DNA of 64,000 nt from sequence record SRR20825019_1354. The stretch is one strand, 5' to 3'. A program made the translations under genes and the position numbers. The notes beneath the pieces are model-generated. The model made no database searches and had not been told where the DNA came from. It saw nothing but the letters and a program-made list of their open reading frames with translations. The number at the start of each line of letters is the position of its first letter. The first letter of the stretch is position 1. Shown in pieces: positions 57,847 through 62,571 of the stretch.

Positions 57847-59409
57847 TCAGGCTTCCTGCGGGCCCGCCACCCCGTCCTCGATCACAAACCGCTTCAGGGT
57901 GCTGGCATCAGGCTCGGGTTTGGTGACATCCCCCACAACACGCATGTCTGCGGTCCAGCTACCCTTGCTCACATCACAGAGCGTATAGCCGCGATACCGC
58001 CCTTCATAGAGCTTGATATGCGGGTTTTCAGGGATCGAGGGCATATTGCGCTGCCAATAACTGTTCCCGCTGGTGATGGAGGTCGCCACAAACTCGCTGG
58101 CCACGGTTTTCGAGTTTGGGTCGTCAAAATCCCGCTTCACGTCACAAACGTAGGTGGCATGCACATCCCCGCCGATGATCACCGGGTTGGAGACATTGCG
58201 TTTTTCAAACATGTCCAGCACCCGGTCGCGGGAGGCAACATAGCCGTCCCAATATTCGCTGCCGATCAACTCGCCATCCCCCGGTTTATAGTCATGCTTT
58301 GAAAACAGCATGCCCTGCGCCATCACATTCCATTTGGCGCCCGCACGACCCATACCCCACATCAGCCATTTTTCCTGCGCTTCACCGAGGATGGACCGGG
58401 TTGGCTCGAACCGCTCCGCGCACGTGCCGTCAATAAGCCGCCAACCGCCGTCATCCGGGGTTTGGCAGGGCTGGTCGGTCCGGTACTGGCGGGTATCAAG
58501 CATGTTGATCTCAAGCAGATTGCCATAATTCGTGCGGCCAAAAAGCGCGGCGTCTGCCCCAATAGGCGCCGCCGCCCGCCGGAGCGGCAAATGCTCATAA
58601 TAGGCTTTATAGGCCGCCGCGCGCCGCTTCAGAAACTCGATCGGGTCCTCAAAATTCTGACCCTGGTCGGCGGCATAATCGTTTGCCACTTCATGGTCAT
58701 CCCAGGTGAACAGCCAGCTTGTGTGCGCGTGGGCTGCCTGCAGGTCCGGGTCCAGTTTATAGGTTGCGTGCAGCGCGCGGTAATCATCCAGCGTGACCGC
58801 ATTGCCCACTGGCACACGCCGGTGCGCCGCACCATAGGATTGCTCGTAGATATAGTCCCCCAGATGGACGATCAGCTCCACATCCTCCAAAACCATATCG
58901 CGGTATGCCTTGAAATATCCCTCGGTAAAATTCTGGCAGGAGCAGAAGGCAAACTTCATGCGCTCAAGCGGCGCCATAACAGCAGGTGCCGTGCGCGCGC
59001 GCCCCACGGGGCTGACCTCATCGCCTGCATGGAAACGGTAAAAATACGGCCTGCCGGGCGCTAGCCCAACCACGTCCACATGCACCGCATGGGCATTCTC
59101 CGCATGCGCCACAGTCGCACCTTTCTGCACAACTTTCTTGAAAGCATGATCTTCAGCAACCTCATAAGCCACCGGCACCGGGTCTGGCCCCACTGCCCTG
59201 TGATCCAAGGGGTCAGGCGCCAGCCGGGTCCAGATCACGAAGCCGGTGGGCATGGCGTCACCCGAAGCCACGCCAAGCGTGAAGGGGTATGAGATAAAAC
59301 GCGGTTTCCCGGTTACCCAGGCTGGTGTTGCAAGCAGTGGCGCGGAAAAAGCCGCAAAACCAAGCGCACTGGCTGTGCGCATAAATTGTCGCCGTGAAAA
59401 ATTGCTCAT
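57847..59409 (-). CDS. phoD: PhoD family alkaline phosphatase (Tat-exported)
   Basis: SRRQFM Tat motif, GVASGD, WTRLAP, HLGDYIYE, WDDHE..ND, LDTRQYR, WDGY, GDVH. Confidence 0.95.
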   Translation of the reverse strand: MSNFSRRQFMRTASALGFAAFSAPLLATPAWVTGKPRFISYPFTLGVASGDAMPTGFVIWTRLAPDPLDHRAVGPDPVPVAYEVAEDHAFKKVVQKGATVAHAENAHAVHVDVVGLAPGRPYFYRFHAGDEVSPVGRARTAPAVMAPLERMKFAFCSCQNFTEGYFKAYRDMVLEDVELIVHLGDYIYEQSYGAAHRRVPVGNAVTLDDYRALHATYKLDPDLQAAHAHTSWLFTWDDHEVANDYAADQGQNFEDPIEFLKRRAAAYKAYYEHLPLRRAAAPIGADAALFGRTNYGNLLEINMLDTRQYRTDQPCQTPDDGGWRLIDGTCAERFEPTRSILGEAQEKWLMWGMGRAGAKWNVMAQGMLFSKHDYKPGDGELIGSEYWDGYVASRDRVLDMFEKRNVSNPVIIGGDVHATYVCDVKRDFDDPNSKTVASEFVATSITSGNSYWQRNMPSIPENPHIKLYEGRYRGYTLCDVSKGSWTADMRVVGDVTKPEPDASTLKRFVIEDGVAGPQEA

Positions 59410-59477: not shown

Positions 59478-59544
59478 TTCAGGCAAGCACCTGCGACAAA
59501 AAACGCACTTGTCCGTGCGCATGAAACACCCTAAAGCGCACACC

Positions 59545-59916
59545 ATGAATATCTTCAGGAAATCGTCCGGCATGACCACCGACCTCGCGCTTTTCGCGGT
59601 GTTGGCACAGCTATGGCTTGCGCTTTCCTGTTGTGTGAGCCTGCCGGCAGGCGACCACCTTGTTTTTGGCGATGACACCTGGTGTTCGGTCGATAGCCTG
59701 AGCACCGGGCATTCCGGCGAGCATGCCGCGCATGAATGCGACTGCGTGATGATGGGCACGCCTTTCGTGTCCGAACCCGTGACCGCAAACCTTCTGCTGC
59801 CGAGGATGCCTGAGCCAAAAGGCCCTGTTTTCGCACAACAGCCAACCCTTCCCTTAAGCCCGCACTACGGCACCATCGGCAGCCGCGCACCGCCCGCCGC
59901 CCTCCAAACAGCATAA
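59545..59916 (+). CDS. DUF2946-like (CruR/CutF-type) leader peptide with C-terminal RAPP arrest motif
   Basis: Hydrophobic N-terminal segment, single Cys, His-rich H..EH..HECDC, Pro-rich linker, SRAPP six residues before the stop; upstream of a TonB-dependent receptor; start 59545 preferred. Confidence 0.82.
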   Translation: MNIFRKSSGMTTDLALFAVLAQLWLALSCCVSLPAGDHLVFGDDTWCSVDSLSTGHSGEHAAHECDCVMMGTPFVSEPVTANLLLPRMPEPKGPVFAQQPTLPLSPHYGTIGSRAPPAALQTA

Positions 59917-59961
59917 ATCAGATTTATCGGCGCGCACCGCCGCGCCACCCTGTTTTGGAGG
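59901..59961 (+). promoter_or_regulatory. Shine-Dalgarno-sequestering RNA structure
   Basis: CCTCCAAACAG (59901-59911) pairs with CTGTTTTGGAGG (59950-59961), which contains the receptor's SD; two inner hairpins. Confidence 0.75.
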
Positions 59962-59967
59962 AAACTC

Positions 59968-62025
59968 ATGAAGTCCCTTTTGAAAGGCGCATGCTCAACC
60001 GCAGCGCTCATGCTCACCACGCCTGCGCTTGCCACAAATGCTGCCACCGATGATGTGGAAACTATTATCGTCACCGCTGAGCGCGGCAAAGGTGAACCCC
60101 CGGTGATTGCTGAAAACCGCGAGCGCCTCGCCCGCACACCGGGCGCTGTTGCCCTTGTTGCTGTTGAAGCTTATGAAAACCGCACGGCCCAGGGCTTTGC
60201 TGATATGCTGCGCGACGTGCCGGGTGTGATGGCCCAAAAACGCTACGGCGAAGAATCCCGCCTCTCCATCCGCGGGTCCGGCATCGGGCAATCCTACCAC
60301 CAGCGCGGTGTGATGTTCGCGCAGGACGGTGTGCCCTTCGCAGACGCAGACGGTTTTTCTGATTTCCAAAAAATCGACCCGCTCGCCGCGCGCTATATTG
60401 AAGTTTACAAAGGCGGCAATGCGCTGCGGTTTGGCGGTGCACAGCTTGGCGGTGCCATCAACCTTGTTACCCCCACCGGCCACACCGCACAGTCAAATTA
60501 TATGCTACGGCTTGAAGGTGGCTCATTTGATACCCTAAGGGGCGGTGCCGCACTCGCCCAGGTGCTGGGTGACTTTGATGTGTACGCATCCGTAAACGCA
60601 TTACGCTCAGACGGCTTTCGGGAATGGGCAAAACAAGACCAAGTGCGTGCGACCGTCAATATGGGCTATAGCTTTGGCGAGGACCGCGAGATCCGCCTGA
60701 TCGCGTACGGCGCTGATATCGACCAGAACGTGCCCGGCTCGCTTGACCTCACCACCGCGCTTGATGCACCGGAAACCTCAACTGATGCAGTCAAAAACGG
60801 CAAATGGGCGCGGGATCAACAGTTGGGCCGCCTGAGCCTGCAAACCCGCTGGCGCTTCAGTGAAAACCTGCTGTTTGAAGGTGGGCTACACGCTACGACA
60901 ACCGATCTGCACCACCCGATCCCCATCATCATCGACCAGCAGTCAGACACCCAAGGCGCCTTTGGCCGGTTTGATTGGGCCGGTGAAGTTGGTGGCCATA
61001 AGACAGACATCTTCTGGGGTATTTCCTACCGGCAGGGACAACTTGACCAACAGCTTTACAGCAACATTGGGGGTGAAAGCGGCTTCCAGTTCGGCGGCAG
61101 CCGCCACAAGGCAACCGGCCTTGATGTTTTTGCTGAAGCCCGCATTTTTGCGACCGATACGCTCGCGCTGGTTGCCGGGGCGTCCTACGGGCGCGCGACG
61201 CGGGACTATACCAACCACCTTGCGCCAGCGAATGACGCGGACAAAACCTTCGACTGGTTCGCCCCGCGCGTTGGCCTGTTGTGGCAAAGCGAAGACGGCA
61301 CCCAGGTTTACGCCAACGTGACCAAATCTGTAGAGCCACCGCACTTTGGTGCGCTTGTGCAGGCCCCATACCCCGGTTTTGTACCTAACAAACCGCAAGA
61401 GGCGGTAAGCGCCGAGATCGGCACCCGTGGCCGGGCCGACAAGCTTGTTTGGGATATCACGCTCTATCAGGCCTGGCTCCAGCATGAGCTGCTGTCGTTC
61501 GCCAATACCTTTGGCTTGCCCAGTGCGGTTGCAGGCGCTGATGACACCATCCATCGCGGCCTTGAGGCTGCCTTTGACTGGCAGCTGATAGAAGAAGGTT
61601 TCATGGGCGGCGGGCTTACATTACGGCTTGGCTATACCTATTCGGACTTCACCTTCGATGATGACGCTACCTACGGCGACAACCGCCTGCCGGTGGTGCC
61701 CAAACACCAGATCCACCTGGGGCTGAGGTATGAGAACACAGCGGGCTTTTTCCTGCATCCAAGTGTGGAGTGGCGGCCAAGCGATACCTTTGTGGATTAT
61801 GCCAACACCATGAAAGCGCCGGGCTATGCGGTGCTGTCGCTGAACGCGGGTTTTGAAGTACGTGAGGGTGTCACCCTGTTTGTTGATGCCCGCAACTTAA
61901 CCGACAAAGCCTATGTGCCCGAGTTTGGGGCCATCAATGACGCGAGCGCAGCCGGGGCAAACCTGGCTGTATTTTACCCCGGCGAAGGCCGCGCCATTTA
62001 TGGCGGCATCACCTACCGCTTTTAA
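59968..62025 (+). CDS. TonB-dependent outer-membrane receptor
   Basis: Signal peptide, TonB box ETIIVTA, plug motifs SIRG, DGVP, IEVYKG, GGAINL, C-terminal NL.DK.Y...GR..Y.G..YRF. Confidence 0.95.
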   Translation: MKSLLKGACSTAALMLTTPALATNAATDDVETIIVTAERGKGEPPVIAENRERLARTPGAVALVAVEAYENRTAQGFADMLRDVPGVMAQKRYGEESRLSIRGSGIGQSYHQRGVMFAQDGVPFADADGFSDFQKIDPLAARYIEVYKGGNALRFGGAQLGGAINLVTPTGHTAQSNYMLRLEGGSFDTLRGGAALAQVLGDFDVYASVNALRSDGFREWAKQDQVRATVNMGYSFGEDREIRLIAYGADIDQNVPGSLDLTTALDAPETSTDAVKNGKWARDQQLGRLSLQTRWRFSENLLFEGGLHATTTDLHHPIPIIIDQQSDTQGAFGRFDWAGEVGGHKTDIFWGISYRQGQLDQQLYSNIGGESGFQFGGSRHKATGLDVFAEARIFATDTLALVAGASYGRATRDYTNHLAPANDADKTFDWFAPRVGLLWQSEDGTQVYANVTKSVEPPHFGALVQAPYPGFVPNKPQEAVSAEIGTRGRADKLVWDITLYQAWLQHELLSFANTFGLPSAVAGADDTIHRGLEAAFDWQLIEEGFMGGGLTLRLGYTYSDFTFDDDATYGDNRLPVVPKHQIHLGLRYENTAGFFLHPSVEWRPSDTFVDYANTMKAPGYAVLSLNAGFEVREGVTLFVDARNLTDKAYVPEFGAINDASAAGANLAVFYPGEGRAIYGGITYRF

Positions 62026-62037
62026 GGGAGAGACAGG

Positions 62038-62571
62038 ATGAAAAAGATGATTACCGCCCTTGTGCTCAGTGCCGCAGCGCTCGCGTCGCCCGTGAAAGCG
62101 CATGTTGTGCTGAGCGAAACAGAGGCCAAACCGGGTGCCTATCATTTCACTTTCCTGCGGGTTGGCCACGGCTGCGACGGGCAGGCAACAGAAAGCCTGA
62201 CGGTAGAAATTCCCGCCGGGGTTTATAGCGCAAAACCGCAACCAAAAACAGGTTGGAAGGTTGAGATTATACGGGAAGACCTGCCCGCCCCGGTGGTTGG
62301 CCCGCACGGCAAAGCGCTGACCGACCGCGTCGCGCGCATTCGCTGGAGTGGTGGTGCGCTCCCTGACAATATGGTCGACCAGTTCGGCCTTTTGGTGAAG
62401 CTGCCAACGAGTTCAGGCCCGCTTTATTTCCCGACCGTGCAATCCTGCGCGCTTGGTGAAAAAAGCTGGACCATGATCCCGCCCGAGGGAGCCGCATGGG
62501 GCAGTGTGCCCACGCCCGCGCCGGTCGTATACCTGAAAAGCGATGAGGATACACAAGCGCCGCATCACTAG
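62038..62571 (+). CDS. YcnI (DUF1775) family copper-binding protein
   Basis: Signal peptide followed by mature N-terminal His (AHV), RV.HGC, P.P..GW, W.GG.L, FP..Q.C, W, PAP. Confidence 0.9.
   Translation: MKKMITALVLSAAALASPVKAHVVLSETEAKPGAYHFTFLRVGHGCDGQATESLTVEIPAGVYSAKPQPKTGWKVEIIREDLPAPVVGPHGKALTDRVARIRWSGGALPDNMVDQFGLLVKLPTSSGPLYFPTVQSCALGEKSWTMIPPEGAAWGSVPTPAPVVYLKSDEDTQAPHH

Follow-up and report, generated by a model that had tools for sequence, protein, structure and literature searches.

Within a 64,000-nucleotide (nt) stretch of DNA from sequence record SRR20825019_1354, which at its full length we call the window, we analyzed a locus at positions 59545-62571 where a small leader gene precedes genes encoding a TonB-dependent receptor and a YcnI protein. 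An earlier note, made from the letters of this DNA, had proposed that the leader peptide senses a metal and arrests the ribosome at a C-terminal Arg-Ala-Pro-Pro (RAPP) motif, and that this arrest opens an RNA structure hiding the receptor gene's Shine-Dalgarno sequence (SD). The three genes, each with its evidence in brackets, are the following:

59545-59916, plus strand: leader open reading frame (ORF), a DUF2946/CruR-like arrest peptide of 123 amino acids (aa) plus stop (ORF list, Pfam).
59968-62025, plus strand: TonB-dependent receptor gene, 685 aa (Pfam Plug plus beta-barrel).
62038-62571, plus strand: YcnI/DUF1775 gene, 177 aa (Pfam DUF1775, 128.8 bits).

These Pfam matches bear out the TonB receptor and the YcnI protein that the earlier note had read downstream of the leader. 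The leader runs from an ATG at 59545 to a TAA at 59914-59916 and the receptor gene begins with an ATG at 59968, which leaves gaps of 51 nt between leader and receptor and of 12 nt between receptor and YcnI. A PhoD phosphatase gene upstream is divergent and a LigT-like gene downstream is convergent, so that the unit would consist of these three genes, and we regard 59545-62571 as probably a three-gene operon with the leader gene first.

The leader contains these segments and motifs:

59581-59643, plus strand: hydrophobic N-terminal segment, residues 13-33, with a Kyte-Doolittle mean of up to 2.12, ending at C29-C30.
59683-59685, plus strand: C47 of a W-C-S motif, invariant in 7 of 7 leaders.
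59707-59754, plus strand: His/Cys/Met patch G55-M70, GHSGEHAAHECDCVMM, a putative metal sensor, with H63, D66 and C67 invariant in the alignment of seven leaders.
59825-59902, plus strand: tract with much C and little G (49% C, 19% G) at the leader's 3' end, where Rho might load, by analogy with the part of cruR described in PMC9426467.
59884-59895, plus strand: R-A-P-P arrest codons, R114-P117 (CGC GCA CCG CCC), six residues before the stop.

All the elements of the 123-aa ORF that had been described before could be read in the sequence, i.e., the hydrophobic segment ended by CC at residues 29-30, the His/Cys motif GHSGEHAAHECDC, a Pro-rich spacer (nine Pro within residues 73-106) and RAPP at 59884-59895. 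The N-terminus, MNIFRK, has a positive FRK followed by the hydrophobic residues 13-33, an arrangement kept in relatives, and by hydropathy these residues are likely to form an export signal or a signal anchor. Gene callers place the leader start at different codons, and an MxxFRK N-terminus that relatives keep speaks for the ATG at 59545. In the whole genome, R[AG]PP or RAGP occurs within the last 12 residues of 41 out of 37,660 stop-to-stop frames of 50-260 aa, and by inspection only three of these 41 combine a hydrophobic N-terminus, Cys/His residues and an adjoining TonB receptor gene. Published assays, in the parts of the sources available to us, identify RAPP and RGPP as the strongest arrest cores and, by toeprinting of CruR, place the third and fourth codons of the motif in the P and A sites (PMC12992588, PMC10951233). 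Because of these arrest data, the stall is expected with the P site occupied by the Pro116 codon (59890-59892) and the A site by the Pro117 codon (59893-59895); C67, 46 residues before the arrest site, would therefore lie near the tunnel exit with the ribosome at RAPP.

A leader profile search of 45 genomes of the family was positive in seven, corresponding to 7 of the 32 genomes of the genus (own genome included) and to none of the 13 from ten other genera; another search recovered these seven loci as well. By the source name of the homologue P0003, the DNA comes from a Kordiimonas-like organism. The arrest motif is kept as R[AG]PP at the C-terminus of all seven homologous leaders (five RAPP, two RGPP), and the conservation in orthologs that the earlier proposal called for is thus present. 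Residues A15, A18, L20, L25, C29, C30, W46, C47, S48, H63, D66, C67, R114, P116 and P117 are invariant in the seven-leader alignment, from which we judge it rather likely that the sensor comprises the invariant C29, C30, C47, H63, D66 and C67, joined in the window's lineage by C65 and M69-M70. Between the window and G012, whose receptors are 91% identical, nucleotide differences in the leader number 24/14/46 by codon position. Synonymous versus non-synonymous codon changes are 7 versus 2 in residues 13-33, 5 versus 3 in the His/Cys segment and 9 versus 16 in the 34-residue spacer, a pattern in keeping with translation of a peptide in which the two ends are important and the spacer would only be a ruler. 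Wider homologue searches returned three proteins when word-indexed and five at E <= 0.001 when run exhaustively with a profile, and a scan of JGI metagenomes with the leader alignment gave 51 pattern matches and no relative.

Downstream of the arrest codons, the end of the leader and the start of the receptor gene are predicted to be joined by a long-range RNA helix with these parts:

59901-59911, plus strand: anti-SD arm CCUCCAAACAG within the last leader codons, with Leu120 encoded by CUC (folds, duplex controls).
59929-59946, plus strand: G+C-rich inner hairpin GGCGCG-CACCGC-CGCGCC, inside the long-range helix (fold).
59950-59961, plus strand: 3' arm CUGUUUUGGAGG with the receptor SD, GGAGG, at 59957-59961, 6 nt before the ATG (fold, duplex).

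The anti-SD arm, CCTCCAAACAG at 59901-59911, starts with the sixth base past the last Pro codon, its CUCC core starts with the seventh, and it pairs with the 3' arm, which reads CTGTTTTGGAGG at 59950-59961, in 11 base pairs (bp) with one bulged U. The 77-nt fold of 59896-59972 has a free energy of -24.4 kcal/mol (z = -2.85), equalled by 2 of 200 shuffles. When the 21 nt after the second Pro codon were paired with the 24 nt before the receptor start, the resulting duplex reached -15.7 kcal/mol, a value that neither any of 500 shuffles nor any of 279 sliding windows from the leader's upstream 300 nt attained. Pairing of the codons after the second Pro codon with the receptor SD is possible at all seven loci of the genus and also at another arrest-leader locus of the own genome, which is unrelated; minimum free energy folds show this anti-SD/SD pairing directly in 7 of these 8 loci and in G012 only after the region was trimmed, and 0-14 of 500 shuffles did as well as the cognate duplexes (-12.0 to -15.7 kcal/mol).

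A MAFFT alignment of the seven RAPP-to-start regions set the 3' arms out of register and was left unused, and we anchored a table of pairs on CUCC/GGAG instead. The CUCC core is offset from the second Pro codon by 6 nt in six of the seven loci and by 3 nt in one. The pair 5' of the core is C-G in three loci, U-A in one and A-U in three, the next pair outward is U-A or C-G in five loci, and on its 3' side the core is flanked by A-U, G-U or G-C. In addition, the Leu codon that supplies the CUC is CUC in 7 of 7 loci, a codon that accounts for 18.6% of all Leu codons in this genome's long frames. Despite the kinship of the loci, a position with three different Watson-Crick pairs is hard to explain otherwise than by selection for pairing, and the pairing between the sequence after RAPP and the SD of the next gene, which the earlier note had pointed out, is conserved with compensatory changes. 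The inner hairpin, which is predicted at the same place in 7 of 7 loci, was listed as terminator-like with the tail ACCCTGTTTT; a regulated intrinsic terminator as the main mechanism was rejected, since a ribosome stalled at RAPP falls short of the hairpin and the U-tract is poor.

With the P site at 59890-59892, the CUCC core occupies +13 to +16. The ribosomal helicase acts near +11, and the mRNA channel covers RNA to about +15. For helicase activity of the ribosome, the available part of a preprint (bioRxiv 10.1101/2025.02.05.636593) cites Takyar et al. 2005. To model the footprint, we deleted the RNA as far as +15, counted from the P site; the ensemble cost of an unpaired SD core then fell in 7 of 7 genus loci from 7.1-10.0 kcal/mol in free RNA to 0.8-4.0 kcal/mol in masked RNA, and in the window from 10.0 to 3.0 kcal/mol. 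The calculation supports a lowered barrier, not a fully open SD. The proposal that a stall at RAPP would free the receptor SD is in this respect upheld in silico, by a helix that is conserved with covariation and by the lower opening cost under masking.

On this sequence evidence, we consider it probable that the leader is a cis-acting, metal-sensitive ribosome-arrest switch whose stalled ribosome makes the receptor SD accessible. The leader peptide would be short-lived, exported and Cys/His-bearing, of the DUF2946 (CruR/CutF) kind, and the mRNA channel of the stalled ribosome would cover or unwind 59901-59911, the arm that otherwise sequesters GGAGG at 59957-59961. A second ribosome would then initiate on the receptor gene, and YcnI would follow. 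Once the stall is released, the leader would be finished, the ribosome would leave, the helix would re-form and the receptor would go untranslated, and Rho may in addition gain access to the C-rich RNA left untranslated. The helix could also serve without any regulated arrest, by coupling receptor synthesis to translation of a leader protein that has a periplasmic metal role of its own, since the 5' arm has to be opened by whichever ribosome moves through 59901-59916 and the Cys/His residues are conserved. We consider such plain coupling very improbable, given an invariant R[AG]PP whose distances to the Cys motif and to the anti-SD are both fixed, a freely evolving spacer (9 versus 16 codon changes over 34 residues) that is atypical of a folded protein, and the available reports on CruR and CutF, neither of which was detected as a protein in cells (PMC9426467, PMC9973294).

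The assignment of the leader to a known class was examined against Pfam DUF2946 (PF11162). The match extends over the whole profile (positions 3-117 of 117, E = 1.2e-4), which agrees with the class suspected in the earlier note, at a score of 23.3 bits that falls just under the cut-off of 23.7 bits; in a six-frame search of the genome the score was 22.8 bits. Two homologues that are 90% identical to the leader (P0001, P0002) carry a precomputed PF11162 annotation. According to the parts of PMC9426467 available to us, the CruR family is defined by CXXC and RAPP, with a spacing of 45 residues, within one or two, between Cys motif and RAPP; over 95% of its members have an export signal, and they come first in operons that also contain TonB transporters, PepSY_TM, YcnI, PCuAC and others. 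The window's leader shares the C-terminal RAPP, the spacing of about 45 residues, an N-terminus that is of the export type by hydropathy, and the first place in a TonB/YcnI operon; it has C65-D-C67 (CxC) instead of the CXXC of the family. The whole-profile match, the canonical spacing and the R[AG]PP of 7 of 7 relatives place it among DUF2946 leaders of the CruR/CutF type, as had been supposed.

The same design was then surveyed across the class, where 43 of 201 sampled genomes contain DUF2946. Thirty loci were fetched, of which 28 had an ORF with an R.PP tail, start codons being chosen automatically. A Cys motif (C.C, C..C or C...C, mostly CxxC) is present in 21 of these 28 alphaproteobacterial leaders; the remaining 7 fit none of the three patterns, and what they carry at that distance is a lone Cys or a CC pair. 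The two Cys of the usual CxxC lie 49 and 46 residues before the Arg of the arrest motif in this sample, and C65 and C67 of the window lie 48 and 46 residues before R114. From this comparison, the sensor of the window is a one-residue-shorter CxC at the canonical place, and, since 7 of 28 class leaders also lack C.C, C..C and C...C, departures from CxxC are not rare; the sensor is less unusual than the earlier note had taken it to be. Tested against shuffles, pairing between the 24 nt after the motif and the 24 nt that precede the best downstream start gave p <= 0.05 in 11 of the 28 leaders, as compared with about 1.4 expected by chance, and 6 of 28 gave p <= 0.01; because start codons were chosen automatically, the count of 11 is a lower bound of uncertain size. 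As a separate observation, several alphaproteobacterial genomes have two DUF2946 matches within approximately 1-2 kb, e.g., G237:C1:3800165-3801481, G186:C6:111230-112537 and G096:C4:502618-504507, and paired leaders or leader-gene-leader arrangements may be common in alphaproteobacteria.

Several observations weigh against a switch based on SD exposure. A 121-nt fold of the region is no better than its shuffles (z = -0.84), and other leader windows pair with the SD equally well or better in 37 (G019), 80 (G001) and 15 (G014) of 279 cases. In the footprint model, the SD of the window remains largely paired at equilibrium when only the 3' RNA is kept (probability unpaired, 0.09-0.18), the residual pairing being a weak alternative that involves the first part of the receptor coding region. 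If 90 nt of leader RNA upstream are retained, the probability that the SD is unpaired gains little in most loci (0.25 to 0.32 in the window, 0.00 to 0.19 in G019 and 0.00 to 0.07 in G014) and the SD can find other pairing partners. The seven loci, as kin of one genus, do not give independent counts, 17 of the 28 class-level leaders are without significant pairing, and the leader itself has a Pfam score marginally below the gathering cut-off and lacks a literal CxxC. Finally, CruR, the sole characterized TonB-linked member, acts via Rho and not via SD occlusion, as described in the available part of PMC9426467.

In that description, copper sensed via CXXC relieves the RAPP arrest of CruR and allows Rho-dependent termination before bfrG, which is repressed by copper; the cruR-bfrG intergenic region is 162 nt in Bordetella pertussis, and the rut site of cruR is coarsely mapped to a C>G region (PMC9426467). 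Like the window, the CruR (Bp2923)/bfrG system of B. pertussis begins with a small exported DUF2946 leader with a C-terminal RAPP, followed by a TonB transporter gene; its Cys motif also lies about 45-46 residues before RAPP, it also has a C-rich 3' tract, and YcnI is among the neighbours of the family. Unlike CruR, the window's leader has CxC and not CxxC, and its RAPP is six and not three residues short of the C-terminus; the intergenic region is 51 nt and not 162 nt, and the third gene is YcnI and not PepSY_TM. The anti-SD of the window lies within the last leader codons, and a word search of the text of PMC9426467 at our disposal did not find "Shine-Dalgarno". Transcription control of the CruR kind would have the stalled ribosome shield a Rho site in the C-rich 3' part of the leader, with release of the stall letting Rho terminate before the receptor gene and the SD helix being secondary or reinforcing polarity. 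The tract at 59825-59902 (49% C, 19% G) resembles the C>G rut region of cruR (PMC9426467, in the part available), makes a contribution of Rho possible, and CruR is the only characterized TonB-linked member of the family. Against this, the intergenic region is short (51 nt versus 162 nt in B. pertussis), a purely Rho mechanism does not require a covarying helix at a fixed distance from RAPP, and the C-richness may simply follow from Pro and Ala codons. We consider Rho unlikely to be the main mechanism; Rho and the SD helix are compatible and may act together.

The SD-exposing switch that we favour has an experimental precedent in CutF, where a stall is considered to melt an SD-shielding stem-loop (PMC9973294; bioRxiv 10.1101/2025.02.05.636593, each in the parts available). 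Like the window, CutF/cutO of Rhodobacter capsulatus has a cis-acting exported leader with several upstream Cys, a short intergenic region and an SD-shielding stem-loop, the last of which the window has in silico; CxxxC and PPP, which are also typical of CutF, are absent from the window's leader. In place of the EF-P-dependent PPP, the window has RAPP, and in place of CxxxC it has CxC plus MM; its cargo is an importer and not a multicopper oxidase, and its polarity is probably the opposite. In the analysis of 5,334 CutF-like proteins in PMC9973294, as far as that text was available, TonB-like neighbours are among the commonest and most intergenic regions are shorter than 100 nt; its clusters bear Cys, His or mixed motifs, and some with other motifs adjoin Ni/Co genes. 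A survey of upstream ORFs with RAPP or RGPP, in the passages of PMC12992588 available, reports enrichment upstream of TonB receptor, YcnI, PCuAC and PepSY genes. The ORFs of that survey resemble the window's leader as small proteins with a localization signal and a C-terminal motif, upstream of metal-homeostasis genes; the same passages contain statistics and arrest assays and do not treat this locus, and a word search of them found no mention of SD, stem-loop or secondary structure. ApdA and ApdP, according to the part of PMC10951233 available, monitor protein localization and not metals, unlike the leader proposed here. All the ingredients are thus published (PMC9426467, PMC9973294, PMC12992588), i.e., the leader, the arrest motif, the SD stem-loop and the TonB/YcnI neighbourhood, and no new principle is involved. 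A fixed coupling of RAPP and anti-SD in TonB-linked leaders was not found in the parts of the main texts available, and supplementary figures or tables of these papers may already show it; by analogy, such a coupling would be an expected extension of CutF.

In which direction the metal acts bears on the kind of cargo. We lean moderately towards a CruR-like polarity in which the metal releases the stall and import falls, which is favoured for an importer. The CutF-like alternative would have metal bound to the exported nascent chain prolong the stall and switch the operon on; otherwise, through the pull of disulfides among the four invariant Cys, the stall would be released. The invariant C29, C30, C47 and C67 recall the four-Cys model of CutF (bioRxiv 10.1101/2025.02.05.636593, in the part available), and, as in CutF, the N-terminus is of the export type and the intergenic region is short and contains a stem-loop. 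The cargo, by contrast, is an importer with a YcnI-type copper-binding protein, so that positive feedback would result if the imported metal induced them, bfrG is copper-repressed according to the available part of PMC9426467, and the arrest core is RAPP as in CruR and not the PPP of CutF; we therefore hold the CutF polarity to be a doubtful, lesser possibility.

The receptor was analyzed with regard to the metal. It scores 25.1 bits against the OprC-type model TIGR01778, for which the cut-off is 472 bits, and its one Cys, at position 9, is in the N-terminal signal-like segment, so that the earlier reading of a receptor that is not OprC-like stands. The copper site of OprC consists of Cys/Met/His. 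In a PDB sequence search, the nearest solved structures are YncD and PqqU (6v81, 9c4o; about 97 bits), and a protein atlas gave generic TonB receptor clusters only. Since the receptor is not OprC-like, is nearest to YncD/PqqU and has a single Cys, the imported species could be a complex and not a free ion; the receptor is probably an importer related to copper that stands outside the OprC family. In the YcnI protein, His22 follows VKA and is the predicted mature N-terminus, the cleavage site being inferred; W144 aligns with the Trp of PDB 3esm, and the position of the Glu ligand aligns with G45, i.e., the Glu is not kept. YcnI of Bacillus subtilis binds Cu(II), and many proteobacterial members keep His and Trp and not Glu, according to the available part of PMC8424229.

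The distribution of receptors among the seven loci of the genus adds to this comparison. In one clade (the window genome, G012, G002 and G015), leaders with H-x-C-D-C precede a receptor of 685-687 aa and YcnI in 4 of 4 loci, and the leaders of G002 and G015 carry C-x3-C. In the sister clade (G019, G001 and G014; loci L013, L014 and L015), leaders with D-C-x-D-C-x-x-C and RGPP or RAPP precede a different receptor of approximately 705 aa, which is 25% identical to that of the window over 147 residues and has as its best NCBIfam match the OprC-type TonB-copper model, with a score of 177 bits that is under the cut-off. In G001 and G014, the ORFs after this receptor gave no Pfam family. Judged by sequence, the genus places related leaders before at least three receptor types. 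Because YcnI is a Cu(II) protein and trails the receptor in 4 of 4 clade loci, and by family precedent, copper would be the likeliest ligand. Zn, Ni, Co or a metallophore complex would suit a receptor that is not OprC-like and is nearest to YncD/PqqU, a sensor that mixes His, Asp, Cys and Met, the CutF-like clusters that adjoin Ni/Co genes (PMC9973294, in the part available), and the ZnuD-like receptor that follows the second arrest-leader locus of the own genome. The YcnI of 4 of 4 clade loci and the TonB-copper model as best match of the sister-clade receptor (177 bits, below the cut-off) speak for copper instead, and we regard a metal other than copper as possible and rather unlikely.

The second arrest-leader locus of this genome (L016, G000:C1:218000-228500, minus strand, leaders at about C1:225596-226394) has, in order, a gene for a hybrid histidine kinase/response regulator, two tandem small ORFs and a gene for a TonB receptor of 735 aa. 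The first small ORF has 107 aa, with HTHDGHPCIIATACKH and a C-terminal RGPPSL, and the second has 111 aa, with CALC, a C-terminal RAPPSFVTPL and a DUF2946 score of 15.9 bits. The receptor has long loops rich in His/Asp/Glu and a best NCBIfam match to ZnuD, which scores 350 bits and stays under the cut-off. With its tail, UCCUUUGUAACCC, the second leader pairs with the GGGUUACAGGA of the receptor gene at -14.9 kcal/mol, reached by 4 of 500 shuffles. Tandem R[AG]PP leaders after the kinase gene were seen in all five genomes that have the second leader (L047-L051: G000, G012, G008, G013 and G018), out of 32 searched. A relay from the first to the second leader via SD occlusion was rejected, since pairing between the tail of leader 1 and the start of leader 2 does not go beyond shuffles in 4 of the 5 genomes (equalled by 123, 10, 120, 124 and 62 of 200 shuffles in L047-L051).

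Further observations concern the surroundings of the leader gene. In its 5' untranslated region (59484-59548), the blocks AGGCAA.CACCTGCGAC and CTAAAGCGCACACCATGA are conserved with G012, and a recognizable SD is absent before the leader ATG at 59545. A promoter scan upstream of the leader found nothing, i.e., no sigma-70-like promoter, and the palindrome GCGCAC-N5-GTGCGC occurs once only, not above chance. The lack of a recognizable leader SD would fit low translation of the leader, as reported for CruR. A 221-nt contig of run X20, which is RNA by guess only, lies on 59615-59835 and is of no use for expression or attenuation. Three further runs, also RNA by guess and bearing the species label of several runs that contain this stretch, gave no contig on it. 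The PhoD-like phosphatase gene (57847-59409, minus strand; 344.8 bits, Tat signal) has no evident tie to the leader operon.

For TonB-linked DUF2946 leaders more widely, we suggest as a tentative idea, to which we give less than even weight, that CUCC is hard-wired 6 nt past the A-site Pro codon, with control mainly translational and not through Rho, and that the four-Cys/His/Asp (plus Met-Met) sensor of this genus may read periplasmic redox or metal competition during export. The ligand may then be other than free copper, which fits because the receptor resembles YncD/PqqU and not OprC. The locus is also an aid to annotation, as its leader falls below the Pfam cut-off and has its start called at different codons. 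It joins two published modes of DUF2946 leaders, the cargo of the CruR type (TonB importer plus YcnI) and the SD-shielding helix of the CutF type, and with a fixed distance of a few nt between RAPP and helix, it would offer a compact model for how metal sensing by a nascent chain is passed on to translation initiation.

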